The notes beneath the pieces were generated by a model. The model had not been told where the DNA came from and ran no database searches. It was given only the letters and a program-made list of their open reading frames with translations. Positions 682 to 37,218 of a stretch of DNA of 64,000 nucleotides are shown in pieces. Made by a program: the position numbers and the translations under genes. This DNA comes from Candidatus Saccharimonadota bacterium (GTDB taxonomy: Bacteria; Patescibacteriota; Saccharimonadia; Saccharimonadales; UBA4665): NCBI GenBank assembly GCA_027365775.1, contig DAHXLX010000017.1:26351-90350 (forward strand), read 5' to 3'. Position 1 is the stretch's first letter. Every line of letters begins with the position of its first letter.

Positions 682-1282
682 CTGGTTCTAAAGTGATTCT
701 TTTATCGCAGTTTGCACCAAGTCCGGCCACCGAGTCGAGACGGGCAAGAAGCTTTTTATCTTTGAAGTAACCGAAATTATCGCCGTACATCAAGGCTAAA
801 CTAACATGCGGCTTATAGCTGCCGTTACTGTTATAGTCATCTTTTAATGGAAAGTCGGCTGCCGAAAAACAAGATTCATACTCCAGCTCTTCATTAATCA
901 GCTCATCGCTGAAAATATCAATACCAAGCTTGGCTTTTAATTCGGAGCCGTAGACCGCTAATCTGCCCAAAACGACCTCGAGCGGCATCTTTGTGGATGT
1001 TATTTTTTCGCTAATTGAGGCCGTAGACGGTCCAATACCGCGGTGACGTTTATCGAAACGGGAAAAACCGATAACCGTTACACCAAGCATATGGGCATCA
1101 AATAACCGCCCGACATTGTGTAGTTCAGGCAAAAGCTTGACTTCAATTGACTGCATCAGAGACAAACTAGCCGGAGAGATTTTGCGCCGGACTGCATATA
1201 CACCATTTAAATTAGCTCGTCGGATAATGTTTGCCTTGGCGGTTCGGTCGCTTGACCGGTTGTTCCGGGGACTCATAGCCAT
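650..1282 (-). CDS. hypothetical protein (possible 2H-phosphoesterase-like; weak)
   Basis: A 210-aa ORF convergent with the previous CDS. Only one clear H-x-S/T-x motif (KPHVSLAL) is present and the second motif is not convincing. Confidence 0.4.
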   Translation of the reverse strand: MAMSPRNNRSSDRTAKANIIRRANLNGVYAVRRKISPASLSLMQSIEVKLLPELHNVGRLFDAHMLGVTVIGFSRFDKRHRGIGPSTASISEKITSTKMPLEVVLGRLAVYGSELKAKLGIDIFSDELINEELEYESCFSAADFPLKDDYNSNGSYKPHVSLALMYGDNFGYFKDKKLLARLDSVAGLGANCDKRITLEPVRPPEVQIYR

Positions 1283-1438
1283 GCCATCCAGCTATTGATA
1301 TTGTCGACGGTCTTAGGTTCAGTTCGAACAACCCAAACCATTTCCCAGCTCCTTTTGTTTTTGGCTTTTAGGTTTAGCCATTCATAAGTCAATCATAACC
1401 ACTAAAGCTTATGCTTGTAAAGACCGATTTAATGCTGC

Positions 1439-1524
1439 TGGTGCCGGAAGAGGGAATCGAACCCTCAATCCAAAAAGGAACACGATTTTGAGTCGTGCGC
1501 GTATACCAATTCCGCCATTCCGGC
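1439..1524 (-). tRNA. tRNA-Leu (anticodon CAA), class II with long variable arm, CCA encoded
   Basis: The reverse complement folds by hand. Acceptor stem is GCCGGAA/TTCCGGC. Anticodon stem is CACGA/TCGTG with loop CTCAAAA. The variable arm is TCC-TTTTT-GGA. The T-arm is GAGGG-TTCGATT-CCCTC, followed by a terminal ACCA. Confidence 0.9.
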
Positions 1525-1604
1525 ACGCTATGAATTTTAAGGATCCAGGAGTCTTAATTGTACTATACTTGAGAAGTAAAGGGCATTGGCCCTGATGAAG
1601 GATT

Positions 1605-2975
1605 ATGGCAAACAATATACACGACAATCATGATAACTCAATTCCGCAAACGCCGGGTACTATTGTCTCTGCACCGCAAAATCTGGCCATAAATCTTGTC
1701 CGACAAAAAATCAACGCATTGTATGAAACCGAACCGGATGCCCAAACCGAAGCAAACGAAGTGGCAATTGAAACACGCCGGAGCAAACACCAGCAGGTCA
1801 TGTATGAATTGATGACCTCCGGTAAGGATCTCGCCAAAATCCAGACCGAATGGCATGAGTATTACCAGGGGCTATCAAACGAAGACAAAAAACAAGTCTG
1901 GCAGGAATTCTATAACAGCAATAAGAATGCCGTCCATCAGGCTCAAGCTGAAGCGGCCAAGAAACTGGATGACCAAGCAGCAAGCGAAACCGCGTCGAAA
2001 GTACGTCAAGCAATAGACAAACCGCAAGGCAGGCAGGCACAGAAGCTGGCGCAACATGTACATGAACGGGCCAACAAACGGCCTAGAACGAATAACAAGA
2101 ATTCAACAGTTACGGCGATTAGAAACAATCTTCGTACCAAGGCGGCAGCGTCACCGAAGCTTACCTGGAAGCACCACCTGCAATCAGCACTGTTCGGATT
2201 GGGAATGGGCGCAATCGTCGTATTCATTCTGCTGTTCGGATTCTTCAACGAAGTCATTATTGCACCCTTTATTCAACCCAGTCGAAATGATACGGCAACG
2301 CCAATAATTCTAAGCAATGCCACAGTTGCCCCCAGCCCAACACCGGAGGTCATTATACCTAAGATTAATGTCGAGATCCCGGTGGACTACAACGCTACAT
2401 CCACCAATGAAAATGTAATTGAAAATGATTTGAACGGGGGAGTTGTCCATTATCCGACCACATCTTATCCGGGCCAAACCGGTAACGCGGCTTATTTCGG
2501 ACACTCGTCAAATAATATTTTTAACCCCGGCAAGTATAAATTTGCATTCGTGTTACTGCACGATCTGGTTGCCGGTGATGTGTTTTATCTGACTTATAAT
2601 GATAAAGTCTACGCCTATAAAGTGTTCTCAACTACGGTTGTCAGTCCGAACGATGTCAGCGTTCTCGATCCGATTACCGGACATGCCGCTACTGCCACCC
2701 TTATAACTTGCGACCCGCCGGGAACCAGCATTAATCGTTTGGTTGTGGTTGGCGATCAAATAAGCCCAAGTCCAAGCAGCGATACCGCCCCCGCCAATCC
2801 AATTACTACCGCTAATACCACATCACAACTGCCCGGCAATGGACCGACCTTATGGCACCGCTTCTTCTCGACAATTTATGGAAAGCTGCTGACCATTGCG
2901 CTTATCGGTGTCGTCGGGTGGTTGATTTGGCGCTGGTATGCCAAAGAATTTAAGCGACCCGCTAAGACGCAATAA
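1605..2975 (+). CDS. sortase family transpeptidase with long N-terminal extension
   Basis: The C-terminal half carries the catalytic His region (YFGHSSNNIF) and the TLITC motif (ATLITCDPPGT). A TM segment lies near residue 200 and a second at the C-terminus. The ~190-aa N-terminal region is hydrophilic. Confidence 0.85.
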   Translation: MANNIHDNHDNSIPQTPGTIVSAPQNLAINLVRQKINALYETEPDAQTEANEVAIETRRSKHQQVMYELMTSGKDLAKIQTEWHEYYQGLSNEDKKQVWQEFYNSNKNAVHQAQAEAAKKLDDQAASETASKVRQAIDKPQGRQAQKLAQHVHERANKRPRTNNKNSTVTAIRNNLRTKAAASPKLTWKHHLQSALFGLGMGAIVVFILLFGFFNEVIIAPFIQPSRNDTATPIILSNATVAPSPTPEVIIPKINVEIPVDYNATSTNENVIENDLNGGVVHYPTTSYPGQTGNAAYFGHSSNNIFNPGKYKFAFVLLHDLVAGDVFYLTYNDKVYAYKVFSTTVVSPNDVSVLDPITGHAATATLITCDPPGTSINRLVVVGDQISPSPSSDTAPANPITTANTTSQLPGNGPTLWHRFFSTIYGKLLTIALIGVVGWLIWRWYAKEFKRPAKTQ

Positions 2976-4425
2976 GAGATACCTGATTTAAGTCAACGAT
3001 ACCATTGGCGGCCTGACTAAACGTAAAATACGAATGATAATCAGGAGCGAAGAACGGCTTGTACGCCGGTAAAGCCGGGGTCAAGGTTTGATGATTAGTG
3101 TCATCATAGTCGGTGACCATAAGTTTGCCGCCACTGACATAGTCAAGCCGGTCGCCATCCATCCAGTTCACATGAGTCTGGGGACCATCTAAAGGTTGGG
3201 TAGTCAAGTAGTGATATGCAGAGTCACCATAAATGTCATATATCGCAAAATTATTGCCATTTTCTGCCAGGATAAACTGAGCGGTCGGCGCAAAAGAAAG
3301 ATAGGTCGGATCAACAATTTTAATTGCTCGGAAGGCTGAAATCGCCGGTTGAGTCGAAGACGCTATTTGAAGATTAGGATTCAGATAAATATAGACGTAA
3401 CTATCGGCGCTATCGGCTATAGCGGCATAAAGATTGCCATTGTATCCTGCCATGTCCAACAGGTAAGTCGTCGCCTGAGGCATATAACGTACGAAATAAT
3501 CTTTGCCGCTAACATCTAACATAACCTTGACCTGTCCGGCTGGTGCGCCACCCTGAGTAACGAATAAAAGCTCGTTCGAACCGTAACTCTTATATGCCAG
3601 AACGCCTGTTTCAATCTGAGTCGGGGTTGGATTGCCGATTATTGCCGTGGACAGTGTCTGGGTTGAAGAATCATAAAAATAAAACTGGTTATATTTAAGA
3701 TTATTAAAGCTGACCGAAGTCGGATTAACGTTAAAGTTACGGTTTAAATTAATCGATTGATTCGGGTTCTGAGTGTCCAACTCAATAAATTCCTGATTGC
3801 CGTCATAGATATGGTCCAGCAACAGGTGTTGGTTGTCGTCCGCCCAGCCGATGACTTGCCAACTCTGGCTGATTTGCGCCGGACTTAAAAGTCCGGCCGG
3901 TAAGCTTAACGTAGTCGGCGTGGCCGTCGGGTCGGTTAGATTATAGAGGTAAAAACTGCCGAAACTGCCGGGTACCGATACCACCAGATACTGCTGGCCC
4001 GGGCTTTGGGTCGCGACTTCCGGAGCACCGTTAAACTTTGCAATGTTAATAGAATGTAATTTGGTTGGAAAGAGCAGCGGATAGTCATAATGAATGACCG
4101 TGCCACCAAAGACTGTTATCACGTGTTTCCACGGCCGATAGCCGGGAGCGGTTAATTTAAACTTATAAACACCCGAGGGGATAGTTAAGCGAGTATTGGT
4201 TGTTGCAGCATTTAAGACACCATTTATATATATCGAAGCCGGATTGGGTTGGCTGGACAAAAAAATCATACCATTCTGTATTACTTTGCCGTTCTTGACA
4301 CCGTAACCGTATGCTTGCCAGAGCAAGATAACACAGGTGAAGGCAATGGCTATGGCCACGAGCGAATAGCCTGTCCACAGGAAAAGACGATAGCGTCGCT
4401 GCTTCTTGGGGTCTAAATATTCCAT
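2962..4425 (-). CDS. PEGA domain-containing membrane-anchored protein
   Basis: An N-terminal TM is followed by a PEGA-type module (SQPNPASIYINGV...TIPSGVYKFKLTAPGYRPWKHVITV), then a large beta-rich extracellular region. Confidence 0.7.
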   Translation of the reverse strand: MEYLDPKKQRRYRLFLWTGYSLVAIAIAFTCVILLWQAYGYGVKNGKVIQNGMIFLSSQPNPASIYINGVLNAATTNTRLTIPSGVYKFKLTAPGYRPWKHVITVFGGTVIHYDYPLLFPTKLHSINIAKFNGAPEVATQSPGQQYLVVSVPGSFGSFYLYNLTDPTATPTTLSLPAGLLSPAQISQSWQVIGWADDNQHLLLDHIYDGNQEFIELDTQNPNQSINLNRNFNVNPTSVSFNNLKYNQFYFYDSSTQTLSTAIIGNPTPTQIETGVLAYKSYGSNELLFVTQGGAPAGQVKVMLDVSGKDYFVRYMPQATTYLLDMAGYNGNLYAAIADSADSYVYIYLNPNLQIASSTQPAISAFRAIKIVDPTYLSFAPTAQFILAENGNNFAIYDIYGDSAYHYLTTQPLDGPQTHVNWMDGDRLDYVSGGKLMVTDYDDTNHQTLTPALPAYKPFFAPDYHSYFTFSQAANGIVDLNQVSLIAS

Positions 4426-4594
4426 GTCATATATAAAATAAATCTTATATTGGTACCAAAGTTACATTAAGAGTAATCAAAATCCCAAAACTTAACCTTA
4501 ATTTTAGATACACTTGCAGGTTAGTACAAGTAGGATTAAGATGGACTCAACGAATCGTTTTGGTTATGCTAAAACAATTATCAAGAGAAGCTAA

Positions 4595-5644
4595 GTGGAT
4601 AAGAAACTGAGGGCAACCATTAATCTAAACGGCAAGCGCTATAACGCCATAACCGGACAACAGCTCGCGGCCAGCTCATACAAAATGGCAAACATAGATG
4701 GCATATTAAAACGTCCCGCACACAAAAATTATTCAGCTGTTGATTCAACGGTACCTAACGGTCAAAAAAAATCAAACCGTATCGCCCAACATAACATCAA
4801 ACGACCGTCTTCAGCTAAAACACTAATGCGTAATAGTGTTAAGAAACCTGCCAAGAACAAACCATTAATCGCCAAGGTCAATCAGGAACTGACCGTTAAC
4901 AAGTCTGACCTGATAAAGACTTCACCGATGTTCGGCAAGATTGATCATCGACTAGCCAGTCGAGCCAAGGCAATTAAACTTAACAGCAACATAAGCCGGT
5001 TCGGAAGTGAAGTAAAGAATATATCCGGCAGTTTCAATCCATATCGACCGCCACGGCAACAACTAGAACCGCCAATAACCCAGACCAAACGAAAGCCGGA
5101 TATTTTCGAAGCTGCAATAGAGAGAGCCACCAGCCATGAACTACCGCCCTTAACCAAAAAGGAGCTCAAGGCTTTAAACGGTCAAACACCATCAAGCAGA
5201 AGTAAGCTTTTTTATGGTATGTTCGTGCTGCTACTCATAGCGGTTGGCGGTTATGGACTATATGCAAACATGCCCACGGTGATGGTAAAATTTGCCGACA
5301 TGCGCGCCGGTTTTGATGCCAGTTTACCAAGCCACCGACCAGCCGGATACAACTTGGCGTCGGTCGATTATGGTCCGGGCACGGTAAAGCTCAACTATCG
5401 GAACAAAAACCACAGCTTCACATTGACGGAGCATTCATCTAACTGGGATAGTGTCACGCTAGTCAGCAGTGTTATTGCACCAACTCACGGATCTGGGTAC
5501 AAACAGATATCGGTCGCCGGTCAAACCGTCTACCTATATGGACATAACCAAGCGACATGGGTATCGAGCGGTATACTGTATCAGGTTCAGGGCAGGGGCG
5601 GCCTAACCGCCAATCAAATAGCTAAGCTTGCCGCCTCACTTTAG
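4595..5644 (+). CDS. hypothetical single-pass membrane protein (C-terminal DUF4367-like pattern)
   Basis: GTG start, basic N-terminal region and a central TM (LFYGMFVLLLIAVGGYGLY). The C-terminal ~130 aa end in ...WVSSGILYQVQGRGGLTANQIAKLAASL, resembling anti-sigma-associated DUF4367 domains. The assignment is from memory. Confidence 0.5.
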   Translation: MDKKLRATINLNGKRYNAITGQQLAASSYKMANIDGILKRPAHKNYSAVDSTVPNGQKKSNRIAQHNIKRPSSAKTLMRNSVKKPAKNKPLIAKVNQELTVNKSDLIKTSPMFGKIDHRLASRAKAIKLNSNISRFGSEVKNISGSFNPYRPPRQQLEPPITQTKRKPDIFEAAIERATSHELPPLTKKELKALNGQTPSSRSKLFYGMFVLLLIAVGGYGLYANMPTVMVKFADMRAGFDASLPSHRPAGYNLASVDYGPGTVKLNYRNKNHSFTLTEHSSNWDSVTLVSSVIAPTHGSGYKQISVAGQTVYLYGHNQATWVSSGILYQVQGRGGLTANQIAKLAASL

Positions 5645-5681
5645 TTGCCCGGTAATTGTTTTTAGTATTTACTTAGTACCG

Positions 5682-7109
5682 ATGAATGAAGTCAGAACAC
5701 GTTTCGCCCCCAGTCCGACCGGTTATTTACATGTCGGCGGAGTCAGGGCAGCTTTATTTCCGTGGTTGGTCGCCAGACATTACAACGGTAAATTTATATT
5801 AAGGATAGAAGACACCGACCGCGCCCGAGAAGTTGGCGGTTCTGTGGATATTATCAAGCAATCACTCGAGTGGCTTGGTATTCTTTGGGATGAGGGCCCT
5901 GGTGTCGGCGGCGCGTACGGTCCATATTTCCAAACACAGCGAACGCAATATTATCATCAATGGGCCATGCGTCTGCTGGACAGCGGCCGAGCATACGCCG
6001 ATATTAGACAGCCGGGCGAACTGGAACAATTGCGTGCCGATGCCCAAACCAAACATAAACCGTTTTTGATAAGGGATTACCGGCCGGCAAATCCGCCAAG
6101 CTGGAAACCAGGTATGCCGTTAAGGTTCAAATCTGAACCGCAAGCCTACAGCTGGCACGATGAAATTATGGGTGATCTTACGGCCGGCAAAGACGCAGTA
6201 GATGATTTTATTCTGCTGAAGTCAGACGGCTTGCCAACGTACAATTTCGGACATATCGTCGACGATCAGGAGATGCACATCACCCACGTTATCCGCGGCC
6301 TGGAGTATATCGCATCTATGCCCAAATACCTTAACTTGTATGAGGCATTAGGGTTTAATAAACCGCTATTTGCCCATATGCCGCATATTATGGGCCCGGA
6401 CGGCAAAAAGAAACTCAGTAAACGTGACGGTGCTAAAAGCGTTCTGGATTATAAGCAAGAGGGTTTCCTGCCTGAGGCAATGGTAAATTTCCTGGCATTA
6501 CTGGGTTGGAATCCGGGTGACGGCCGGGAAATGTTTAGCCTCGATGAAATGGTTGATAGCTTCAGCCTGGATCGGGTTCAACATAGCGGCGCACGGTTTG
6601 ATGAACGACGGTTGATCTGGATGAATGGCAGTTATATTCGTTTACTAAGTCTGGATGAGCTTTATGATCGGTGCGCCCAATATTGGCCCGTCGAAGCCAA
6701 AGGCTACGATAAAACATACAAGAAACAAGTACTGAAACTGTTACAGGAACGGCTCAAATACTTATCCGAGTTACCCGAACTCAGTCGTTCGTTTTTCGTC
6801 GACTTGCCACTTAATCCTAAGTTAATTTCCACCCATAAACAACTTGCTAAGTACGACAATCAATCACTTAAGCGGCTACTCGAAACCAGCTTAGTAGATC
6901 TAAAGGATTGTGATTTTAGCGTTGACAAGTTGAATGATCGGCTAAATGGATTGCTGGCAAAAACCGGCGAGCCGCCGGCGGTACTATTCAGTCTGATCAG
7001 GATCGCCACCACCCAGGCTCAAGCCAGCCCGCCTCTGGCGGAAAGCCTAGCCGTTATCGGCAAAGAACGGACATTGAAACGGATCGTCCGTCAAATTGAG
7101 ACTTTATAG
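5682..7109 (+). CDS. gltX: glutamate--tRNA ligase
   Basis: The N-terminus RTRFAPSPTGYLHVGGVRAALF contains the HIGH motif, and KLSKRDG is the KMSKS motif. I place the start at ATG 5682 (MNEVRTRF) rather than the ORF-track 5628, which overlaps the upstream CDS. Confidence 0.92.
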   Translation: MNEVRTRFAPSPTGYLHVGGVRAALFPWLVARHYNGKFILRIEDTDRAREVGGSVDIIKQSLEWLGILWDEGPGVGGAYGPYFQTQRTQYYHQWAMRLLDSGRAYADIRQPGELEQLRADAQTKHKPFLIRDYRPANPPSWKPGMPLRFKSEPQAYSWHDEIMGDLTAGKDAVDDFILLKSDGLPTYNFGHIVDDQEMHITHVIRGLEYIASMPKYLNLYEALGFNKPLFAHMPHIMGPDGKKKLSKRDGAKSVLDYKQEGFLPEAMVNFLALLGWNPGDGREMFSLDEMVDSFSLDRVQHSGARFDERRLIWMNGSYIRLLSLDELYDRCAQYWPVEAKGYDKTYKKQVLKLLQERLKYLSELPELSRSFFVDLPLNPKLISTHKQLAKYDNQSLKRLLETSLVDLKDCDFSVDKLNDRLNGLLAKTGEPPAVLFSLIRIATTQAQASPPLAESLAVIGKERTLKRIVRQIETL

Positions 7110-7144
7110 ACAATCAACAGATGATTCCGTGTTAGAATTAGCAT

Positions 7145-8389
7145 ATGCAAGATGACATCCGCTCTGTGCCGTCAACGCCTCAAGCGGACCCGCCACCACC
7201 ACACGTAACCAGTCACGGTTTCAAAACACCGGAAGAAGTAGCGGCTCACGATGATGACATTATCGACATGTCGCAGGAGGATAAGCCAGACCGGCCACTA
7301 ATGATAAAACCTAAACCAAAACATAAGTTCTGGCCACCGACACGTAAACAGTTAATTATCGGCGGTGCGGTTATTGTTGTCATAATCGCCGCGGCAATCG
7401 GCGGTTATTCGGCTCTCAGTCATCACAAGCATACGCTAGTATCAAACATTCCGAAGCCCAAACATATCCAAAAGGTCGCTCCAAAACCAACCACCATAGC
7501 TTCAACCCTTACCGGCCTACCGGTTAACCCGTCTGCTAACCAGCGACCTATTACTGCAGTAATGATTGAGAATACGCCTTATGCCAGACCGCAATCAGGT
7601 CTTAGTCAGGCTGGGGTGGTAATCGAAGCGCTTACCGAAGGCGGTATTTCCAGATTTATGGCATTATTTCAGGACCAATTGCCAACCAGTGTCGGACCGG
7701 TACGTTCGGTCAGGCCGTACTTCCTGGACTGGGCGCTAGGTTTCGATGCCCCGCTAGCCCATGACGGCGGCAGCCCCTTGGCATTATCGGAAATTGGCCC
7801 GTTGGGCATTAAAGACTTGAATCAAATGTATAATCCCGGACCATACACCCGTATTTCCAGCCGGCCGTCACCGCATAATCTATACGCCAGTCTGCCGGCG
7901 CTTGTTAGCCTTGAAGCCAGCAAAGGCTGGACTTCCAGTAATTTCACCGGGTGGCCACGGAAACCTGATCAACCGTCCAAAGATCCCAATGCCACCAATA
8001 TCAGCTTCGATCTGTCATATTCTACTTACAACGTAAACTACAGCTATGATTCATCTACCAACAGCTATAACCGATATGTCGGCGGAGCGCCGCAAATCGA
8101 TGCCAATACTAACAGCCAGTTAAGTCCCAAAGTCGTAATCGGTATGGTAGTGCCTTGGAGTGAGGGACCGCTTGACACTTCTGGTGCATACTATTCCGTA
8201 TATCAGACCACCGGTAGCGGCCAGGCGTACGTCTTTCAAGATGGTACGTTAACTCTTGGCCAATGGAATAAACCAACGCCGCAGTCTCCGCTATCTTTCA
8301 CTACCTCCAGCGGGCAACCATTGAAACTTAACGCCGGCCAGACCTGGATAACAGCAATCGCTTCCAATCAGGACGTATCATATAACTAA
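7145..8389 (+). CDS. DUF3048 (YerB-like) domain-containing membrane-anchored protein
   Basis: A TM anchor is followed by ITAVMIENTPYARPQSGLSQAGVVIEALTEGGISRFMALF and VRSVRPYFLDWA, which is characteristic of the DUF3048 family. Confidence 0.72.
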   Translation: MQDDIRSVPSTPQADPPPPHVTSHGFKTPEEVAAHDDDIIDMSQEDKPDRPLMIKPKPKHKFWPPTRKQLIIGGAVIVVIIAAAIGGYSALSHHKHTLVSNIPKPKHIQKVAPKPTTIASTLTGLPVNPSANQRPITAVMIENTPYARPQSGLSQAGVVIEALTEGGISRFMALFQDQLPTSVGPVRSVRPYFLDWALGFDAPLAHDGGSPLALSEIGPLGIKDLNQMYNPGPYTRISSRPSPHNLYASLPALVSLEASKGWTSSNFTGWPRKPDQPSKDPNATNISFDLSYSTYNVNYSYDSSTNSYNRYVGGAPQIDANTNSQLSPKVVIGMVVPWSEGPLDTSGAYYSVYQTTGSGQAYVFQDGTLTLGQWNKPTPQSPLSFTTSSGQPLKLNAGQTWITAIASNQDVSYN

Positions 8390-8407
8390 ACATAAGATGG
8401 TGGGACA

Positions 8408-9949
8408 GTGGATTATCTAAGTAGAACCAAACGACAGTACTGGATCGTCTTGTTCGTATGTTTCTTAATTTATAACGCCCTAATCGTTGGTCTGTGGTTA
8501 TTGCTTCACTCGCTTGGCTCACATTTCCATGTCGCAAACGATATTGCGCTGCTAATTTGTAGCGTTTTTGGATTGCTGTTGATGATAGTCTTCAGCTCGA
8601 TAATCAGCAAGTATCTGATCGAACCATTGAAAGCCATCTGGCAACTTATTCTCCATATCAGCCCAAGCGGTGTTGCTGTCCCGGCGCCTAATATCGATTC
8701 GCTCAAAACCGGACGCGAACTTGTTGCCAATTTAGCCATGCAAGTCTATCAGCTGACCGCGGTTGCCGGCCAGTATGGCACTAAAGCAGCCGACAGCGAA
8801 TTAAACAACAACTTCGTCGCCAATAAATTGCCCTTGCCACTGTTTATCCTCGATTCCGGGGAAACAATCATCTACGCCAACATCGCAGCCAGTGATTATA
8901 TCGGCACGCCAGTCAAAGACTTAACCGGTAAGAACTTTTATATGGTTATGGACATGTCGTTTCCGAGCGAAAGCACTTTGGATAAATGGCTTAAAGATGT
9001 TAAGGCCAACACCGCTACCGCAAGTATGAGCTGGGAAAGGGTACGCTTAAACGTACTGGATAACCATCCGACTCGGCTGTTCGATCTGGCAGCTTTTTAT
9101 AATAAAGATAATCCCCAAAATTATGAAACCATGTTGGTATTGTTCGATCACACCAAACAGTATTCTCAAGATGATCAGGCTGTTAGCTTCGTCGCCTTAA
9201 GCGTACATGAACTAAGGACACCACTGACACTACTTCGCGGTTATATCGAAGCGTTTGAAGAAGAACTGGGTAATGAAATGAATCCGGACCTTAAAGACTT
9301 TATGCAAAAAATGGGGGCAACGGCTCAACAGTTGAACGCATTTGTAAATAATATTCTAAACGTTGCCAGAGTCGACAATGACCAACTGCAACTCTCACTC
9401 CATGAAGAGAAATGGGACAGCATCGTAGAGTCGGCAATCACTAACATTGCATTACGTGCTAAAGTCAGGGGCATAAAACTCGAGTCACATATCGAACCAG
9501 GCCTGCCAACAGTCGGCGTAGATAGATTAAGCATTTACGAAGTACTTAATAACTTAATCGATAACGCAATCAAGTACAGCAACGACTCAAAAGTCATTAA
9601 AATAGATGCCCATTTGACGCATGAAGGCATGATAGAAACGACAGTACAAGACTTTGGTGTTGGTATCAGTCCAAACATAATGTCTAACCTGTTCACAAAA
9701 TTCTACCGTGATCATCGCAACCGGTCTCAGATCGGTGGCACGGGTCTAGGCTTGTATTTGAGTAAAGCTATCGTCAGTGCCCACGGCGGTAATATTTGGG
9801 TCAGATCGACACTCGGACAGGGAAGCATTTTCGGTTTCACCCTTAAACCATATACAATGCTTGCCGAAGAAATTAAAAACAGTGATAATAAAGATATTGT
9901 CCGTGGAGCACACGGCTGGATTAAAAACCACTCACTATACAGGAGATAA
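8408..9949 (+). CDS. sensor histidine kinase (TM + PAS-like + HisKA + HATPase_c)
   Basis: H-box LSVHELRTPLTLLRGYIE, N-box LNNLIDNAIKYS, G-boxes QDFGVGI and GGTGLGLYLSKAIVSAHGG. GTG start. Confidence 0.86.
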   Translation: MDYLSRTKRQYWIVLFVCFLIYNALIVGLWLLLHSLGSHFHVANDIALLICSVFGLLLMIVFSSIISKYLIEPLKAIWQLILHISPSGVAVPAPNIDSLKTGRELVANLAMQVYQLTAVAGQYGTKAADSELNNNFVANKLPLPLFILDSGETIIYANIAASDYIGTPVKDLTGKNFYMVMDMSFPSESTLDKWLKDVKANTATASMSWERVRLNVLDNHPTRLFDLAAFYNKDNPQNYETMLVLFDHTKQYSQDDQAVSFVALSVHELRTPLTLLRGYIEAFEEELGNEMNPDLKDFMQKMGATAQQLNAFVNNILNVARVDNDQLQLSLHEEKWDSIVESAITNIALRAKVRGIKLESHIEPGLPTVGVDRLSIYEVLNNLIDNAIKYSNDSKVIKIDAHLTHEGMIETTVQDFGVGISPNIMSNLFTKFYRDHRNRSQIGGTGLGLYLSKAIVSAHGGNIWVRSTLGQGSIFGFTLKPYTMLAEEIKNSDNKDIVRGAHGWIKNHSLYRR

Positions 9950-15398: not shown

Positions 15399-17021
15399 AT
15401 GGCTGAATTTTTAGCCATAGCCCAATGTCGGGTCTCAACCTTAGAGCAAAAAGAAGCAGGCAATAGCCTGGAAGCACAAGAAAAATATATTTACGAGTGT
15501 GCCGAAAAGCTGGATGCAAAAATAGTAAAAATGTGGTCACTTAATGTGTCGAGTCGAAAGGGCAAGAACCTAGCCAGAAAAGATTTACAAGAAATATTCC
15601 AATACTGTAAAGAGTATAAAAATATCCGATATTACATCTTAGATGAGGTAGATAGGTTTATGCGTTCCGTCGAAGAATACTATTGGTGGAAAGTGGAGTT
15701 CAAGCGTATTGGAGTCTATCTTGCATATGCTAAACTGCCGGAACTTACGCACCAGGATGACCCGCTAGCAGTCATGCGTGAAATGCTTGAGGTTTTTCGG
15801 GCAGAAGCCAGTAACCACGAGAGGATAACCAAGACCAAAGACAAAATGGCCGCACGCGCAGCTGCCGGTTACTATCCATCTAATCCGAGACAAGGTTACG
15901 TAAGGGGGACAATTCCAGCCCTCCACGTCCCAGACCACAGGCTTGAACGCTTTAACTTGCTAAAACAGGCACTAACCGCAACTGCCCACTTCAAAATGAA
16001 GCCAGAGGAAGCTTTGCGTTGGTTGAATGAAAATGGTTACCGCACTCCGGGTGGCTGCAAATTAGATATGAACCATTGGCGGAGCATCATGCTTGACCCA
16101 TATTACGCTGGCATTATTAAGTTTGGCCAGTGTCCAATTAATGAAAATGGTCTTCATGAAGCTATGATTACTAAAGCAGAGTGGGAGATAAATGTAGCTA
16201 TAATTACCAAACGGCCAACAAATCGCAGGGGGCAGTTCAACCCTAATTACCCCCTCAACAAATACATCGTGCATAAGGATTGTGACAAAGGTGACACTAA
16301 CAAGTTCAGTGGCTTTAATCACTCTAATGGCAAGGGTTGGGAACGTTCTGATTATAGCTGTCGAGGTTGCTCAATATGTCTCTCCAGAGATGACATTCAC
16401 GACCATTTAAGCGCAGTGCTTGATGCTATGGTGTTTATAGGTGGTTCTAAGGATAGGCTCAAGAAATCACTTAAGATTGCCTGGCAAGACGAAGAAAAGT
16501 ACCGATTTGATAAATTAGAGCGCTTAAATAAACTTAAGCTTGGCCAGGAAGAAGTAAAGTCTAAGGTCATTAGCGCCATAGTAAGCAATCCTGACATGGC
16601 AGATGACCTAAAGACGGAGCTAAATAAAACAAAGGCTAAAATAGCCGAATATGAGGCTCAGATTACCGAAGCAGGTCAGGTAGACAAAGAGTTTCGAGAT
16701 TTTACATTGTTTGCCTTAGATTTTGTAGATAATTTACGGCAGAACTTCTGGAGGCTTGAGCCAGAAGATTTTATTGCTTGTTTGAAGTTATTGTTTCCTG
16801 AGGCAATTGAAGTAGATTCTGGCAAAAAACTTCACATTTCCAGGATTAGCCCGCTCTATATCCTAAACTCAGTAACTAAAAATTTAAAAATTGTCCAATT
16901 TGATACAAAATCAGGAATGATGGTGACCCCTGCGGGATTCGAACCCGCGATTGCCGGACTGAGAACCCGGAGTCCTGGACCGCTAGACGAAGGGGCCACT
17001 TGCTTCAGCATGGCATATTAG
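15399..17021 (+). CDS. large serine recombinase (resolvase/invertase-type catalytic domain)
   Basis: AIAQCRVSTLEQ (catalytic Ser), DEVDRFMRS, a Cys cluster (CRGCSIC) and a long coiled-coil (KLERLNKLKLGQEE...KAKIAEYEAQITEAG). Strong SD AAGGAGG. The last ~33 codons are antisense to tRNA-Glu. Confidence 0.85.
   Translation: MAEFLAIAQCRVSTLEQKEAGNSLEAQEKYIYECAEKLDAKIVKMWSLNVSSRKGKNLARKDLQEIFQYCKEYKNIRYYILDEVDRFMRSVEEYYWWKVEFKRIGVYLAYAKLPELTHQDDPLAVMREMLEVFRAEASNHERITKTKDKMAARAAAGYYPSNPRQGYVRGTIPALHVPDHRLERFNLLKQALTATAHFKMKPEEALRWLNENGYRTPGGCKLDMNHWRSIMLDPYYAGIIKFGQCPINENGLHEAMITKAEWEINVAIITKRPTNRRGQFNPNYPLNKYIVHKDCDKGDTNKFSGFNHSNGKGWERSDYSCRGCSICLSRDDIHDHLSAVLDAMVFIGGSKDRLKKSLKIAWQDEEKYRFDKLERLNKLKLGQEEVKSKVISAIVSNPDMADDLKTELNKTKAKIAEYEAQITEAGQVDKEFRDFTLFALDFVDNLRQNFWRLEPEDFIACLKLLFPEAIEVDSGKKLHISRISPLYILNSVTKNLKIVQFDTKSGMMVTPAGFEPAIAGLRTRSPGPLDEGATCFSMAY
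16919..16929. repeat. 11-bp direct repeat GATGGTGACCC (candidate attR core)
   Basis: Overlaps the tRNA-Glu 3' end. Identical to 11343-11353. Confidence 0.6.
16921..16997 (-). tRNA. tRNA-Glu (anticodon CUC), CCA encoded
   Basis: Hand fold of the reverse complement. Acceptor stem GGCCCCT/AGGGGTC with one G-U pair. D-stem GTCT/AGGAC. Anticodon stem CCGGG/TCCGG with loop TTCTCAG. T-arm GCGGG-TTCGAAT-CCCGC. Terminal ACCA. Confidence 0.9.
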
Positions 17022-20568: not shown

Positions 20569-21939
20569 ATGAGCAATACTAAACTCCCGATCGTTGCACT
20601 AGTCGGACGGACAAACGTCGGTAAATCAAGTCTGTTTAACGCAATCCTTGAAAGAAGGGAGGCAATTGTCGCGAGGGAAACCGGTACTACCCGGGACAGC
20701 ATATCCGCAAAGGCCAGTTTTCACAGCCATCAGTTTTGGATAGTCGATACAGCCGGTGTCAAGGATCCTGAAGACGATTTCGAAGAAACCATTCAATCGC
20801 AAATCCGACAGGCAAGCGAGGATGCCGATGTCATCCTCGTAGTAGTTGAAGCCAATGCGGTAATTAGTCACGAAGACAGACAGGTAGCTACTCTAGCACT
20901 AAAAAGTAAAAAACCAGTGATTCTGGTAGTCAATAAAATCGACAAATCGGATAGCAGTGAAATCTACCGATTTGCTGCTTTGGGCATTAAAGACATAGCA
21001 CCGACAAGCGTGACTCAATCAAAAGGAGTTTATGATCTGCTTGAGAAAATTAGCAGACATATTACTAAAGTACCGATTAAAGCTGAACGTGAACGGCTCA
21101 AGATAGCCTTACTTGGCCGACCCAATGTCGGCAAATCCAGTCTTTTCAATACACTGCTTAACAAACAGCAGGCAATAGTCGCCGAGCGAGCAGGCACCAC
21201 CAGGGATATAAACCGGGCGGTTATTCGTTATATGAACCAGGAGATAGAACTAATGGACACCGCCGGTATTCGACGACCAGGCAGAATTGAGCAGGGCGTC
21301 GAAAAGTTCAGTGTTTTAAGATCACTAGCGGCAATTGACGAAGCAGATATCTGCTTTGTGCTAATCACCGCCGAGGAAGCAAGCGTAGCACTGGATCAGA
21401 AAATAGCCGGTATGGTCAAAGACGCGGGCAAGGGCCTGGTATTGGTAATAAGCAAATGGGATTCCGTCCAGTCGGCAGGAAACTTAACTCATGATCAGTT
21501 TCTAGCCCGGATTACCCGAGATTATGAATTTGTATATTGGGCACCGCTGGTTGTTACTTCCGCCATTAGCGGACAAAATATTACCAAACTCTATGAATTG
21601 GCTATGCAAATCTACGATGCCAGAGCCCAAAGGATACCGACAAAGAAATTAAATGAATGGCTGGGACGGACTATCCGGGCACATCCGCCAGCTGGCTTAA
21701 AGGCCCGGACTCCAAAACTAAATTACATCATTCAGGAAAACGATAATCCAATCCCCGCCTTCAAGATTTTTGGCAGTCAAACGGCATACATACACTGGAG
21801 TTACCGGCGCTATCTGGAACACTCGTTACGTGATACGTACAGGTTCTTTGGTAATCCGGTGCAGTTATGGTTTATTGAGAAACATGTCGCCCACAAACAC
21901 GGCGTCAAACCAACTAATGCCGAAAACGAGGACAACTAA
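20569..21939 (+). CDS. der: ribosome-biogenesis GTPase Der (EngA)
   Basis: Two tandem GTPase domains (GRTNVGKSSLFN..DTAG..NKID and GRPNVGKSSLFN..DTAG..SKWD) plus a KH-like C-terminus. Confidence 0.92.
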   Translation: MSNTKLPIVALVGRTNVGKSSLFNAILERREAIVARETGTTRDSISAKASFHSHQFWIVDTAGVKDPEDDFEETIQSQIRQASEDADVILVVVEANAVISHEDRQVATLALKSKKPVILVVNKIDKSDSSEIYRFAALGIKDIAPTSVTQSKGVYDLLEKISRHITKVPIKAERERLKIALLGRPNVGKSSLFNTLLNKQQAIVAERAGTTRDINRAVIRYMNQEIELMDTAGIRRPGRIEQGVEKFSVLRSLAAIDEADICFVLITAEEASVALDQKIAGMVKDAGKGLVLVISKWDSVQSAGNLTHDQFLARITRDYEFVYWAPLVVTSAISGQNITKLYELAMQIYDARAQRIPTKKLNEWLGRTIRAHPPAGLKARTPKLNYIIQENDNPIPAFKIFGSQTAYIHWSYRRYLEHSLRDTYRFFGNPVQLWFIEKHVAHKHGVKPTNAENEDN

Positions 21940-22580
21940 TGGCCTGGTTACAAAAACGACCCCAAGTAGCATTGCCGATTAATTACTATACAGTCGGACA
22001 AAACACGGTTTTATTGTTAGTTGGTCTAGGTAACCCGGGCACCAAATATGATAACACCCGTCACAATATCGGTTTTGCATGTATCGATGCTTTTGTCGAT
22101 AAGTATGATGAGATGTCCGAATGGGTAGGCAAGAGAGACTTAAAGTGCTTGATGTCAACCGGTCGAATCGGTGAGAATCAGGTGATTGCAATAAAGCCAA
22201 CAACGTACATGAACCTTAGCGGAGAAGCAGTATCACTGGTAATGAGTTTTTATAAGCTCCAGCTAGCGCATATAGCAGTCGTCCACGATGAGCTGGATAT
22301 CGACTTCGGCTATATTCGCACCCGCCTCGGTGGCAGTGCTGCCGGCCACAACGGTATCAAATCGATCACAGATCATATAGGGGAAGATTACGCACGCATA
22401 AGAATCGGAATCGGACCGAAGCGACCAGCGCAAATCGATAGTGCCGACTTTGTCTTGCAGCCGTTTAACGATACGGAGAAACGGCAATTGGACAACCTGA
22501 AACAGGAAGTAACGGCAATTATTAGTGAATTTGTTTATGCCAAAACAATCAGCCAAGAAACCAGAACATTTATCGTGTAA
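21939..22580 (+). CDS. pth: peptidyl-tRNA hydrolase
   Basis: LLVGLGNPGTKYDNTRHNIGF, YMNLSGEAV and HDELD motifs. The start overlaps the der stop (TAATG). Confidence 0.9.
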   Translation: MAWLQKRPQVALPINYYTVGQNTVLLLVGLGNPGTKYDNTRHNIGFACIDAFVDKYDEMSEWVGKRDLKCLMSTGRIGENQVIAIKPTTYMNLSGEAVSLVMSFYKLQLAHIAVVHDELDIDFGYIRTRLGGSAAGHNGIKSITDHIGEDYARIRIGIGPKRPAQIDSADFVLQPFNDTEKRQLDNLKQEVTAIISEFVYAKTISQETRTFIV

Positions 22581-22581
22581 T

Positions 22582-22625
22582 ACAAAAACAGACCGACGAG
22601 AGGGGGTGGGCACCGCTCGTCAGTC
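22582..22625 (-). terminator. intrinsic terminator (minus-strand orientation)
   Basis: On the minus strand, the GAC-T-GACGAG ... CTCGTC-G-GTC stem is followed by TCTGTTTTTGT. The T-tract is present only in this orientation. Confidence 0.5.
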
Positions 22626-22924
22626 TGTCTCAGCGGACAGAAGAACTGTCCGCAAACAAACTCCCTTCAAGCCCACCCGGGCGAAACATCATGCAAAAAA
22701 ATAAGGCACGTGTCTTTACTATAAGTAAAACCGTTCAGGCTCGCGCTTGATCGGGGGATCACTTAAAGGGGTTAGTATGCTTTAGAACGATGCCTTAAAG
22801 GCACCTAAAGGACGTAGTAGTGGAGGGTAACAACTACTTTATATGGTCCCGATCTAAAGCAATCTAACATTTGTTAGAATGGGGTAAAAGGTGCGTAAAT
22901 CCTAATAAATTAAGACTTACAGCT
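22582..22924 (-). ncRNA. candidate ~340-nt structured RNA of unknown class
   Basis: It lies between a consensus promoter and the terminator above and has stops in all frames. Several nested helices are visible: GATCGGG/CCCGATC, CTTTAG/CTAAAG, AGTAG/CTACT, GCGGACAG/CTGTCCGC and GGGTGGGC/GCCCACCC. Confidence 0.45.
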
Positions 22925-22928
22925 GGCA

Positions 22929-22957
22929 ATAATAGCAAAATTGTGTTTTTATGTCAA
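22929..22957 (-). promoter_or_regulatory. sigma70-type promoter TTGACA-N17-TATTAT
   Basis: The reverse complement reads GTATTGACATAAAAACACAATTTTGCTATTATTGCCAGCT. The predicted TSS is near 22922-22924. Confidence 0.5.
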
Positions 22958-23025
22958 TACTTTCTAATAATTTCTATATACTGACAAATTCATGTTGTTA
23001 TCATGCTTGTGTTAATATATAATCT

Positions 23026-23211
23026 ATGGGCAATATAAATAAAAAAATAACCATTATGTGTTTCACCGTTCTAGGATTAGTTGGCAGCTGGATTGGCGCC
23101 GCTATGCAGCACAATAATTGGTTCGGTTTATGGAGTAACGTACTGGGCATCGTCGGATCGTTAGTCGGCATCTGGGTAGGTATTATCATCGGCAATTACA
23201 TCGATTCTTAA
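23026..23211 (+). CDS. small two-TM membrane protein (GlsB/YeaQ/YmgE-like pattern)
   Basis: Gly-rich TM helices VLGLVGSWIGAAM and VLGIVGSLVGIWVGIIIG. The start is uncertain, with an alternative ATG at 23056. Confidence 0.45.
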   Translation: MGNINKKITIMCFTVLGLVGSWIGAAMQHNNWFGLWSNVLGIVGSLVGIWVGIIIGNYIDS

Positions 23212-25764: not shown

Positions 25765-26793
25765 ATGTCAGAGAAAATATCGACGAAAAATTTGGTAAAC
25801 GGGGTACTGCAGTCCATAGATCACGATCGTGAAAGAGAGATTGTATCTCGACGTTTTGGCCTATTCGAGCGCAAGGAAACCCTTGAGCAAATAGGAGAAC
25901 TGTTAAGTATTACCCGTGAAAGAGTACGCCAACTCGAAAAAGCTGTTATCCAAAAACTCAAGGCGGCCGGCGAACAGCATAAACTTGCGGGTATCGATGA
26001 TTTTCAAACTCAAATTCTGGCAATAGTAAAAAGCTCAGGCCAGGTAGTACGAATCAGCGAATTGGCTAACCGGTTGGTCGAGGATCCTAACCGTATCGAA
26101 CAATCAAGGTTGGCCTTCCTGTGCGGGCTATGTCCTGATCTTGTATTAATATCTGACGATGATACTTTCTATGCGTGTGTAGCCGATAGACAACAGTATA
26201 GCGAAAAGTCACTTAAAGAGGCGATTGGCAACATTACCAAAACCATCTCTAAGATTGGTGAGCCTAAACCAATCGAATATATCGCTAAACAGGCAGGTAT
26301 AGCCGATATCAAGCATGCCAAAGCATTAGCCGGTGCATCAAAACTACTGACAAGCCTGAATGGACAGTGGGGGCTAGTTAAATGGCCATTAGTTAACCCA
26401 AAGAATATCCGCGACAAAATATATGTTATTTTGAAGGAAAACGGTCGCCATATGCATTTTAACGAAATAGCTGAAGCAATCAAGTCCAGTGAATTCAAAC
26501 GAAAAGACGTAACAACTCAGGCTATACACAATGAATTGATTAAAGACAAGCGATTCGTTCTGATCGGCCGTGGAATCTATGCACTTAAAGAATGGGGTTA
26601 TGAAAAGGGTACTGTGGCTGATATCATTAGCCAGGTACTAAGAGAAGCAAACCAACCGTTACATCGTGATGAAATAGTTAAACGCGTTCTAAAGAGTCGT
26701 TTTGTAAAAGAAACTACAATATTATTAAATTTACAGGGTAAACCACAATTCCGTCGCGTGGCGAAAGCTACTTACGAGTTATCTGACGATTAG
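25765..26793 (+). CDS. sigma-70 region-4-like HTH plus HARE-HTH domain protein
   Basis: ETLEQIGELLSITRERVRQLEKAVIQKLK matches sigma region 4.2. The C-terminal half contains two HARE-HTH-like units (MHFNEIAEAIKS...RFVLIGRGIYALKEWG and LHRDEIVKRVL...FRRVAKATYEL). Confidence 0.68.
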   Translation: MSEKISTKNLVNGVLQSIDHDREREIVSRRFGLFERKETLEQIGELLSITRERVRQLEKAVIQKLKAAGEQHKLAGIDDFQTQILAIVKSSGQVVRISELANRLVEDPNRIEQSRLAFLCGLCPDLVLISDDDTFYACVADRQQYSEKSLKEAIGNITKTISKIGEPKPIEYIAKQAGIADIKHAKALAGASKLLTSLNGQWGLVKWPLVNPKNIRDKIYVILKENGRHMHFNEIAEAIKSSEFKRKDVTTQAIHNELIKDKRFVLIGRGIYALKEWGYEKGTVADIISQVLREANQPLHRDEIVKRVLKSRFVKETTILLNLQGKPQFRRVAKATYELSDD

Positions 26794-36342: not shown

Positions 36343-37218
36343 TCACGATACATTTTTAGATATAGCGTTTAGCGTGTTGATATCAGCCTCGTCGATTTCT
36401 AATGCCGCAGCGCTGACGTTCTCCTCCAAATGTTTTATTGACGAAGTTCCCGGAATCGGCAATATATTAGCCGAGTGATCCAGCAGCCAAGCAATAGCTA
36501 TTTGGTAGGGTGATGCGTTGTATTTGGCAGCCACTTTTGATACCACATCATTAGCGAAACCGTCAGGCAGATTACCGCCTACGGGGAAATAAGGTATAAA
36601 AGTAACGCCGTGCTGTTGACAGAGGCGTAAAATATCCTCGTGCTCGCGATTTATTAAATTATAATTGTTCTGTACACTAACAAACTCACCCATATTCATA
36701 GCCGTCGTGAATTGTTGAGGCTCAATATTTGATAAGCCAATATGCTTGATTTTTCCTTCACTTTGCAGGTCGAGCAAGGTACCGAACGAGTCTTCAAATC
36801 TCACTTTGGGATCGACAGTATGCAGCTGATAAAGATCGATTGAGTCGAGGTGCAGCCGACGCAAACTATCTTCACAGGCCCTGCGTAAATGCTCGGGCGA
36901 ACAGTCCGCAATCCATATTCCCGGGCCACGTCTGATCAGCCCGCCTTTCGTTGCCACGACTATTCCCCTATAAGGAAACAAGGCTTCTTTGATCAGATTC
37001 TCGCTTACCTCCGGGCCATAGGCATCAGCGGTGTCGATAAAATTCACGCCCAGTTCAACCGCCCGTTTAAGCAATCTTATTGCACCCTGACGACTCGCTG
37101 GATCACCCCATATACCCGGGCCCGTGATTCGCATCGCTCCATAACCCAAACGATTGACTTTAAAATTGCCAAGTTTTATCGTTCCTGCCGCCTCAGCATT
37201 AACATCTACCGTTAACAT
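36343..37218 (-). CDS. aldo/keto reductase
   Basis: LGYGAMRITG, FIDTADAYGP, VVATKGG and IPGTSSIKHLEEN motifs. Confidence 0.88.
   Translation of the reverse strand: MLTVDVNAEAAGTIKLGNFKVNRLGYGAMRITGPGIWGDPASRQGAIRLLKRAVELGVNFIDTADAYGPEVSENLIKEALFPYRGIVVATKGGLIRRGPGIWIADCSPEHLRRACEDSLRRLHLDSIDLYQLHTVDPKVRFEDSFGTLLDLQSEGKIKHIGLSNIEPQQFTTAMNMGEFVSVQNNYNLINREHEDILRLCQQHGVTFIPYFPVGGNLPDGFANDVVSKVAAKYNASPYQIAIAWLLDHSANILPIPGTSSIKHLEENVSAAALEIDEADINTLNAISKNVS

Follow-up and report, generated by a model that had tools for sequence, protein, structure and literature searches.

A predicted gene for a large, highly structured non-coding RNA in Saccharibacteria and the recurrence of its terminal hairpin in phage contigs

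The subject of this analysis is a 445-bp gap in a 64-kb stretch of contig DAHXLX010000017.1 (Candidatus Saccharimonadota bacterium, assembly GCA_027365775.1; the whole stretch is referred to below as the window). The gap lies between pth (21939-22580, plus strand) and the gene of a 61-amino acid membrane protein (23026-23211, plus strand). Sequence comparison with relatives identifies positions 22922-22582 of the minus strand as a stand-alone non-coding RNA gene, the product of which is large and highly structured. The predicted RNA family is present in every Saccharibacteria (TM7) locus that offers enough sequence to test, and the gene is part of the Saccharibacteria core genome. The RNA is uncatalogued and, within Rfam 15 and the searchable literature, categorically new. 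A preliminary description of the window, made from its letters, had proposed a minus-strand RNA gene of about 340 nucleotides (nt) that has a promoter and a terminator to itself. This proposal is now strongly backed by about 100 relatives, which show conservation, synteny and covariation. The terminal hairpin of the RNA also recurs on its own in uncultured phage contigs.

Results

Homologues and gene order

The nearest relatives of the window pth among 185,579 species genomes are metagenome-assembled genomes (MAGs) of Saccharibacteria (L001-L020). An nhmmer search with the window RNA was positive in 15 of these 20 loci, where the homologue lies downstream of pth and always on the opposite strand; a sixteenth locus (L007) holds only the 3' end of the RNA, at the contig edge. 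The remaining four contigs stop before topA and thus none of them is a counter-example. The same search of pth loci from outside the Saccharibacteria (L021-L080) gave no match. Metagenome contigs were scanned for the exact 18-mer GCGGTGCCCACCCCCTCT, which yielded at least 120 loci, nearly all with the RNA. The homologue set drawn from Saccharibacteria MAGs and metagenomes comprises 103 full-length copies (98 below 90% identity), with lengths of about 285 to 565 nt from the presumed start. The comparison with regions downstream of pth in relatives, which the preliminary description had named as a check, therefore produced homologues, conservation and, as described below, covariation. One of the contigs, DASRLG010000021.1 (L005), is labelled Candidatus Dormiibacterota and carries a Saccharibacteria-type pth (64% identity) together with the RNA; it is probably a mis-binned Saccharibacteria contig.

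The genes around the RNA are a rluB-like gene, der (engA) and pth, followed by topA and the gene of a protein with a sigma-70 region 4 and a HARE-HTH domain. The convergent arrangement with pth noted in the window is general: pth lies downstream of the RNA gene on the opposite strand in 79 of the 79 loci where it is seen. topA is upstream and divergent, on the opposite strand, in 64 of 64 loci, and the RNA gene is always antisense between der-pth and topA. Second nhmmer matches in L085 and L189 proved to be a single copy split by an insertion. Full-length loci carry one terminal hairpin (H8) each, and the 64-kb window contains no further H8 hairpin besides that of the RNA itself. The conserved promoter and the synteny therefore describe a vertically inherited, syntenic, apparently single-copy, stand-alone gene and not a leader or a 3' untranslated region.

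Promoter, terminator and coding potential

The TTGACA-N17-TATTAT promoter recognized earlier at 22929-22957 matches the sigma-70 consensus at 11 of 12 positions and carries an extended -10 TG. A single such site is not above chance, as the AT-rich region holds five promoter-like sites with 4.0 expected, and the case accordingly rests on the comparison with relatives. The promoter is significant because it is kept in all 103 homologues. The -35 box stands at the same place in every one of them (TTGACA in 94, TTGACT in 9), the spacer measures 17 bp in 98, and the extended -10 TG is found in 102. The -10 boxes read TAAAAT, TAGAAT, TATTAT and similar.

At the other end of the gene, the GC-rich hairpin and T-tract that had been placed about 340 nt downstream of the promoter, near the pth stop, consist of a 12-bp stem, CAGACUGACGAG/CUCGUCGGUCUG (22627-22616 with 22600-22589), a 15-nt loop and a U-tract that ends 2 nt from the pth stop codon (22578-22580). 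A simple terminator scanner gave no call at the 3' end of the RNA because it admits loops of 3-8 nt only. The ends of the RNA were predicted from these signals, the 5' end 7 nt past the -10 box (±3 nt) and the 3' end within the U-tract.

Folding of the minus strand gave -127 kcal/mol with z = -8.8 relative to dinucleotide shuffles; the corresponding value for the plus strand is z = -4.5. The statement that the gap has no open reading frame (ORF) in any frame has to be amended, since short ORFs of 31-59 amino acids are present, though unconserved in relatives. The distances between conserved blocks are uniformly distributed modulo 3 across the homologues and no reading frame is kept, which indicates that the locus is non-coding. 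The locus also displays the general features of a stand-alone non-coding RNA gene, namely a conserved promoter and terminator of its own, no same-strand gene downstream, and a conserved secondary structure with compensatory changes.

Secondary structure

To derive the structure, RNAalifold was applied to 98 sequences and combined with a mutual-information scan and inspection by hand; 79 pairs were then counted on an independent MAFFT alignment of 30 sequences (A1). Standard pairs occupy 84.7% of the alignment cells, in contrast to 37-48% when the partners are slid by 1-3 columns. Changes on both sides were seen in 45 pairs, compared with 21-33 in the slid controls, and the covariation score is 0.21, compared with 0.07-0.09. 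None of 500 shuffles matched any of the five structure measures observed. At least nine helices are backed by compensatory changes, most of which fall in H2, H5b, H6 and H8; H7 covaries strongly in the 98-sequence alignment. The helices contain 622 G-U cells and 136 A-C cells, an excess that identifies the minus strand as the RNA strand. The fold comprises H1, then H2 carrying H3 and H4, a multi-branched H5/H5b/H6 domain, H7 and the terminal H8. The coordinates of all elements are collected in Table 1.

Table 1 Features of the RNA locus in the window.
Feature	Positions	Strand	Basis
RNA gene, ~341 nt	22582-22922	-	whole-length nhmmer homologues; folding z; helix counts
Sigma-70 promoter	22929-22957	-	-35 TTGACA 22952-22957; 17-nt spacer; TG 22936-22937; -10 TATTAT 22929-22934
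H1, 5' hairpin	22894-22921	-	base UGUAAG/YUUACG conserved, tip variable; compensatory changes
Single-stranded element GCACCUUUUACCCC (family consensus GCACCUUAUAcCCCC)	22881-22894	-	unpaired in the consensus fold
P2alt hairpin, UUCUAAC...GUUAGAU	22862-22879	-	96-99% of cells pair
H2, 5' strand GUUAGAUUGCUUUAGAUCG	22850-22868	-	14-16 pairs; 98% of cells paired; 7 pairs changed on both sides
H2, 3' strand CGUUCUAAAGCAUACUAAC	22771-22789	-	as for the H2 5' strand
H3 hairpin, loop UGUUACCCUCC (22822-22832) containing CCUCC	22816-22838	-	stem covaries
H4, variable hairpin, GUGCC/GGCAU in the window	22790-22804	-	length- and sequence-variable hairpin at this site in relatives
H5, 5' strand CCCUUUAAG	22762-22770	-	100% of cells pair
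H5, 3' strand CUUGAAGGG	22663-22671	-	as for the H5 5' strand
Inner domain closed by H5b	22681-22744	-	GCGA 22741-22744 with UCGC 22681-22684; H6 22709-22714 with 22685-22691
G-rich strand GGGUGGG, candidate pseudoknot partner of H8-loop CCCACCC	22672-22678	-	92-98% of cells complementary
H7 hairpin, GCGGACAG/CUGUCCGC	22633-22653	-	strong covariation, columns 299-320; missing in some lineages
H8 terminal hairpin, 12-bp stem, loop AGCGGUGCCCACCCCCUCU (core 22601-22615)	22589-22627	-	stem covaries
Terminator U-tract UUUUUGU	22582-22588	-	T-run after H8 in 103 of 103 homologues

Most of the helices picked out by eye in the preliminary description are elements of this conserved fold. The CUUUAG/CUAAAG pairing is part of H2, AGUAG/CUACU is the stem of H3, the UGCC/GGCA hairpin is H4 (a variable hairpin at its site in relatives), and the 8-bp hairpin is H7. 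The long-range GGGUGGGC/GCCCACCC pair is likewise counted as conserved, as the pseudoknot candidate. The GAUCGGG/CCCGAUC helix, in contrast, is specific to the window and conflicts with the conserved H2; across the family, CCCGAUC belongs to a small hairpin that varies.

Downstream of H1, the single-stranded element has five positions (G27, A29, C30, U32 and U33) that are invariant in the 98 sequences. The adjoining P2alt hairpin shows a rare G-to-A change that both pairing partners compensate: wherever C46:G60 has become U:A, G60:C151 has become A:U. Its loop carries variable inserted hairpins in several genomes, and its 5' strand is missing in four lineages. P2alt competes with the distal 5 bp of H2 (22771-22775) for GUUAG (22864-22868), for which there are two CUAAC copies, and the alternative between P2alt and H2 may be a conformational switch. 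The long helix H2, written GUUAGAUUGUUUUAGAGCG / CGCUCUAAAACANACUAAC, encloses H3 and the variable H4. From U93 to C99, the H3 loop is the same in all 98 sequences, and this motif played no part in their selection. The pair counts of H4 are low because this hairpin is poorly aligned.

Inside H5, written CCCUUUAAC / GUUGAAGGG, lie in order a first variable hairpin, H5b, a small A-rich-loop hairpin, a second variable hairpin and H6. Within H5, C164:G285 changes to G:C in 14 of the 98 sequences, and a U:G pair also varies to U:A and C:G. The helix is otherwise almost invariant, which is compatible with pairing and short of proof. Of the H5b cells, 94% pair, and changes on both sides occur in four of four pairs; the corresponding values for H6 are 88% and five of six pairs. 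The candidate pseudoknot shows no covariation because both of its sides barely vary. The GGGUGGG and CCCACCC strands can pair, as judged from their complementarity, and the helix would then stack on H5.

Three pairs of the H8 stem each show four or five types of standard pair. The segment GGUGCCCACCCCC of the H8 loop is invariant in the 15 genome loci that were found independently through pth. Together, the structure exposes three near-invariant C-rich elements, namely the 5' element GCACCUUAUACCCC, the H3 loop UGUUACCCUCC and the H8 loop AGCGGUGCCCACCCCCUCU. Across the homologues, fixed sites carry inserted hairpins of variable form.

Searches for known families

At the gathering score, Rfam 15 (4227 models) identified two tRNAs in the whole window and nothing else. 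With E ≤ 10, no match was obtained for positions 22450-23100, and nothing consistent was obtained for 20 homologous loci. The models searched include those of OLE, raiA, ROOL, GOLLD, HEARO and T-box RNAs, and no covariance model matched the RNA. The scan that had been proposed as a check thus returned no known family. In the searchable literature, no description of this RNA was found: the only TM7 entry of Weinberg 2017 is lysM-TM7, a small unrelated leader, and Narunsky 2024 makes no mention of Saccharibacteria or TM7. Of the two options left by the preliminary description, a very divergent known RNA or an undescribed one, the second is therefore supported by the lack of an Rfam 15 match, of a transfer-messenger RNA (tmRNA) call by ARAGORN and of the signature motifs discussed below.

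A T-box leader on the plus strand was considered, as the reverse complement of the H8 loop resembles GGGUGGNACCGC. This reading was rejected because the promoter, the U-tract and the 622 versus 136 cells favour the minus strand. Moreover, the plus-strand motif would directly follow pth, at the 5' end of the region, and Rfam gave no T-box match.

The terminal hairpin in phage contigs

The H8-loop 16-mer GGTGCCCACCCCCTCT occurs in 34 IMG/VR contigs, of which only one (L225) contains the whole RNA. In most of the others, the 16-mer again forms a hairpin loop of the pattern stem-AGC-GGUGCCCACCCCCUCU-stem. The stems differ between contigs yet remain complementary, and a few matches have little or no hairpin. 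The full 19-nt loop AGCGGUGCCCACCCCCUCU is found as a stand-alone hairpin in about 30 uncultured phage contigs (L201-L234, L294; L092 at 7400-7520; L125 at about 6000-6060). G-U wobbles in these hairpins favour the C-rich strand as the RNA, and loop variants without the final UCU mostly lose the hairpin context. The stand-alone hairpins gave no relevant Rfam match.

The phage hairpins lie between phage genes and are mostly co-directional with them. Their sites include positions upstream of the large terminase, between head-module genes, after the endolysin and next to RecT. Some are preceded by a -10-like box and followed by a U-tract, and would correspond to putative mini-RNAs of 40-100 nt. 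The one in L092 has the order hairpin, GCACCUUGAUCCC, H8-type hairpin; this layout resembles that of the full RNA, with its single strand near the 5' end and its 3' hairpin, and may have arisen by chance. The same contig encodes, at 3017-3517 on the minus strand, a Tad3 homologue (Pfam PF25185, E = 4e-30; Tad3 is an anti-defence protein directed at Thoeris), as well as RecT, an exonuclease and an HNH endonuclease. A search of 50,697 GenBank phage records found no copy of the RNA or of its hairpin, and the carriers are therefore uncultured phages. Plausibly, they are phages of Saccharibacteria.

L225 (IMGVR_UViG_3300049064_000004, 1-8444) is flagged viral and holds a full copy of the RNA at 7933-8376, at the contig end. 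In place of topA, the RNA has beside it genes for RecT, a PD-(D/E)XK nuclease-FtsK fusion, C5 and Dam methylases and an 81-amino acid KhpA-like KH protein. L225 probably reflects the insertion of a prophage that separated the RNA gene from topA. C-rich RNA is bound by KH domains, and the presence of a KH protein next to a C-rich RNA might be relevant or a coincidence. As an RNA-linked partner, the KH-domain protein was rejected, as it is present in L225 and in no other locus.

Two other conserved segments were searched in the phage contigs. The H3-loop 15-mer occurs, outside L225, in unrelated contexts without a hairpin; about half of these matches share the start region of one gene and correspond to its ribosome-binding site on the opposite strand. 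Of the matches to the H2 17-mer, only that in L225 is real.

Neighbouring genes

The 61-amino acid protein encoded at 23026-23211 (plus strand), divergent from the RNA promoter, is a GlsB/Transglycosylase-associated-like membrane protein. A homologue lies upstream of the RNA in only 18 related loci, and the protein is therefore not tied to the RNA. At 25765-26793 (plus strand), the window encodes a 342-amino acid protein with an N-terminal sigma-70 region 4 followed by HARE-HTH, as in the delta subunit of RNA polymerase. The protein is conserved downstream of topA in 23 related loci, and its domain combination is unusual. Elsewhere in the window, tRNA-Glu(CUC) at 16921-16997 (minus strand) falls within the 3' end of a 540-amino acid ORF at 15399-17021 (plus strand), which is either an overrun of the ORF or a true overlap.

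Discussion

A probable housekeeping RNA with a proposed protein or RNA partner

Taken together with the gene model, the analysis leads us to regard the RNA as, rather probably, a housekeeping ribonucleoprotein RNA that serves as scaffold or decoy. A strong extended -10 sigma-70 promoter would drive its synthesis, and the terminal hairpin with its U-tract would stop transcription just before the convergent pth. The RNA would then act with a partner, in the manner of the well-studied large conserved bacterial RNAs, and its C-rich loops would be the contact surfaces. A conserved partner, be it a protein or a G-rich RNA, probably recognizes the RNA through H8, which may be a self-contained recognition element because phages reuse the hairpin on unrelated stems. 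Phages, probably those infecting these bacteria, would carry the hairpin in their own transcripts or small RNAs and so use the partner or compete for it.

A more specific version of this proposal is advanced tentatively, as one that we find conceivable and would not call probable. The RNA would constitute a new class of housekeeping RNA, ribonucleoprotein or catalytic in nature, that all Saccharibacteria possess beside RNase P RNA, tmRNA and signal recognition particle (SRP) RNA; H8 would dock the partner, and phages would have copied the hairpin to hijack or titrate that partner.

Several observations weigh against the interpretation as a scaffold or decoy RNA. Expression and the RNA ends are deduced from sequence. 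The RNA has no protein gene specifically tied to it, and its conserved neighbours are on the opposite strand. Within the metagenome set, the H8 loop is invariant partly by design of the search, since these loci were fished with the 18-mer. A few lineages lose the G-rich strand yet keep the H8 loop, and Saccharibacteria are only plausible hosts of the hairpin-bearing phages. Finally, the use of Shine-Dalgarno sequences in the window is weak, which speaks against a simple Shine-Dalgarno-binding role.

Alternative functions

The last point bears on the alternative that the RNA is a trans-acting base-pairing regulator, in which the C-rich strands (CCUCC, CACCUU and CCCCCUC) would be seeds resembling an anti-Shine-Dalgarno sequence and the rest of the molecule a scaffold. 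The targets would be purine-rich ribosome-binding sites or other G-rich RNA, as for RsaE/RoxS and RNAIII. Three invariant, exposed C-rich elements are what such a regulator would need; taken as its reverse complement, the H3 loop looks like a ribosome-binding site and matches the Shine-Dalgarno regions of unrelated phage genes, and the phage mini-RNAs add to the H8 hairpin little more than a short hairpin at the 5' end and a stretch with CCUU. Nevertheless, the size of the RNA, its number of helices and their near-invariant sequences go far beyond what a small RNA with seed pairing requires. Within the 64-kb window, no target complementary to the H3 or H8 loops was found above chance, and a clear Shine-Dalgarno sequence precedes few genes, with start codons taken from raw ORF calls. 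A regulator of this type is thus considered unlikely. A Shine-Dalgarno sponge was rejected on the same ground, the small number of clear sites upstream of window genes.

Several window genes have a TATAAT-like box at most about 15 nt before the start codon (e.g. 19868, 20569, 36343-37218 and 53766-54449). Together with the small number of Shine-Dalgarno sequences, these boxes suggest short leaders or leaderless mRNAs in this organism.

More doubtful still is a lineage-specific ribozyme. The complex multi-domain fold with a likely pseudoknot, the concentration of invariant nucleotides in junctions and loops, and the expansion hairpins at fixed sites, as in RNase P RNA and rRNA, are all of the kind expected for a catalytic RNA. 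However, no similarity to any Rfam ribozyme model was detected and no candidate substrate or reaction presents itself, and the behaviour of H8 as a detachable module in phages suits a binding site better than an active site.

Phages classically integrate at the genes of tRNAs and tmRNA, and the terminal hairpin could accordingly be a DNA-level attB site, with the phage copies as attP and the phages integrating at the 3' end of the RNA. There is one copy per host locus and per phage locus, an identical 19-nt core is flanked by inverted repeats, and phage-like genes adjoin the RNA gene in L225. These genes are, however, on the promoter side of the RNA and not on its 3' side. No integrase adjoins any hairpin examined, which argues against the attP/attB explanation. 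The hairpins are co-directional with the flanking phage genes in most loci examined, their G-U wobbles favour one strand, many copies lie within late operons without a U-tract, and no duplicated half-sites were seen at the host loci. We regard this explanation as very improbable.

Identity with known housekeeping RNAs

The size of the RNA, as noted in the preliminary description, fits RNase P RNA or tmRNA, but the resemblance does not extend beyond size. The motifs of RNase P RNA, tmRNA and SRP RNA that could not be found in the window are likewise absent from the 98 homologues. The exact CR-I (GGAAAGUCC) and CR-IV of RNase P RNA occur in none of them, and neither does CR-V (ACAGAANNCGGCUUA), even when one mismatch is allowed. 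The 5' end of the RNA forms H1 and the 3' end forms H8, both backed by covariation; the ends do not pair into a P1 helix, and there is no acceptor stem. The succession GGGUGGG-UUGAAGGGUG ... CCCACCC may loosely recall P11/J11-12 of type A RNase P RNA. GAAGGG is, however, paired in H5 with covariation, whereas it is unpaired in J11/12. The RNase P models gave no match at E ≤ 10 in the window or in the 20 homologous loci.

The RNase P RNAs of bacteria from the candidate phyla radiation (CPR) are divergent and can escape the Rfam thresholds; in the study of Lui et al. 2021 (PMC8172020), which gives no coordinates, the RF00010 thresholds were lowered for 10 of 35 complete CPR genomes to find RNase P RNA. 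The same study nonetheless found an RNase P RNA detectable with RF00010, with the conserved features kept, in all 35 CPR genomes, two Saccharimonadia included. That the present RNA is a very divergent RNase P RNA is therefore hardly credible.

A divergent tmRNA, SRP RNA or 6S RNA is the least credible identity of all: a tmRNA-like size, a strong promoter of the housekeeping type and the nearby translation genes (pth, der and rluB) are set against the lack of an ARAGORN call in the window region or in any of the 98 homologues, of a tRNA-like domain, of the T-loop GGUUCGA and the UCCACCA 3' end (exact matches in none of the 98) and of a conserved reading frame, against the absence of the SRP helix 8 motif (GGAAGCAG with a GNRA loop) from the same 98 sequences, against the architecture of 6S RNA, a rod of about 180-200 nt with paired ends and a central bubble where the present RNA measures 285-565 nt and is multi-branched with unpaired ends, and against the lack of an Rfam match to the tmRNA (RF00023), SRP (RF00169/RF01854) or 6S (RF00013) models.

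Significance

Large, intricate bacterial RNAs without an evident function are rare; OLE, raiA, ROOL, GOLLD and a few others are known, and each has opened new biology. Saccharibacteria are CPR epibionts with reduced genomes, in which almost all genes that have been kept can be expected to be important. Strains in culture and genetic tools are now available for them, and the RNA is experimentally tractable because of its strong promoter, its strict synteny and about 100 diverse covarying homologues. The reuse of the terminal hairpin by phages offers a direct handle on the partner of the RNA, and the hairpin might serve as a sequence marker by which phages could be assigned to hosts among the Saccharibacteria. 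The family merits addition to annotation resources, as current pipelines leave the locus blank.

Comparison with known systems

The RNA invites comparison with four groups of known elements. It resembles raiA motif RNA, OLE, ROOL and GOLLD in being lineage-restricted, hundreds of nucleotides long and encoded by a stand-alone gene, and it shares with them many covarying helices, invariant junction and loop nucleotides and a function that is not evident from sequence. ROOL and GOLLD also occur in phages. The hosts of these four RNAs are Firmicutes or Actinobacteria, whereas the present RNA belongs to Saccharibacteria of the CPR and matches no Rfam model. Unlike them, it is strictly syntenic between pth and topA, and its terminal hairpin is detachable and reused in phages.

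RNase P RNA (RF00010, RF00011) and tmRNA (RF00023) are comparable in length (300-450 nt), in their place in the core genome, in their strong promoters and in carrying expansion hairpins at fixed sites. The present RNA matches none of their covariance models. It lacks the P4 (CR-I, CR-V) and the P1 closing helix of the former, and of the latter it has neither the tRNA-like domain nor the tag reading frame nor the CCA end.

RsaE/RoxS and RNAIII of the Firmicutes likewise expose conserved C-rich motifs and use the terminator hairpin as part of the functional RNA. RsaE is, however, only about 100 nt long and RNAIII encodes a peptide, the architecture of these RNAs is far less conserved, and there is no homology. 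Pairing with ribosome-binding sites is demonstrated for RsaE/RoxS and RNAIII, and is conjecture for the RNA described here.

H8 itself recalls the lambda boxB/nut elements and the operator hairpins of phage coat proteins, which are short, have a conserved apex on a variable lower stem and lie between genes in phage transcripts. In contrast to these, the loop of H8 is much longer, at 19 nt, and differs in sequence, and the hairpin also forms the 3' end of a host core RNA.

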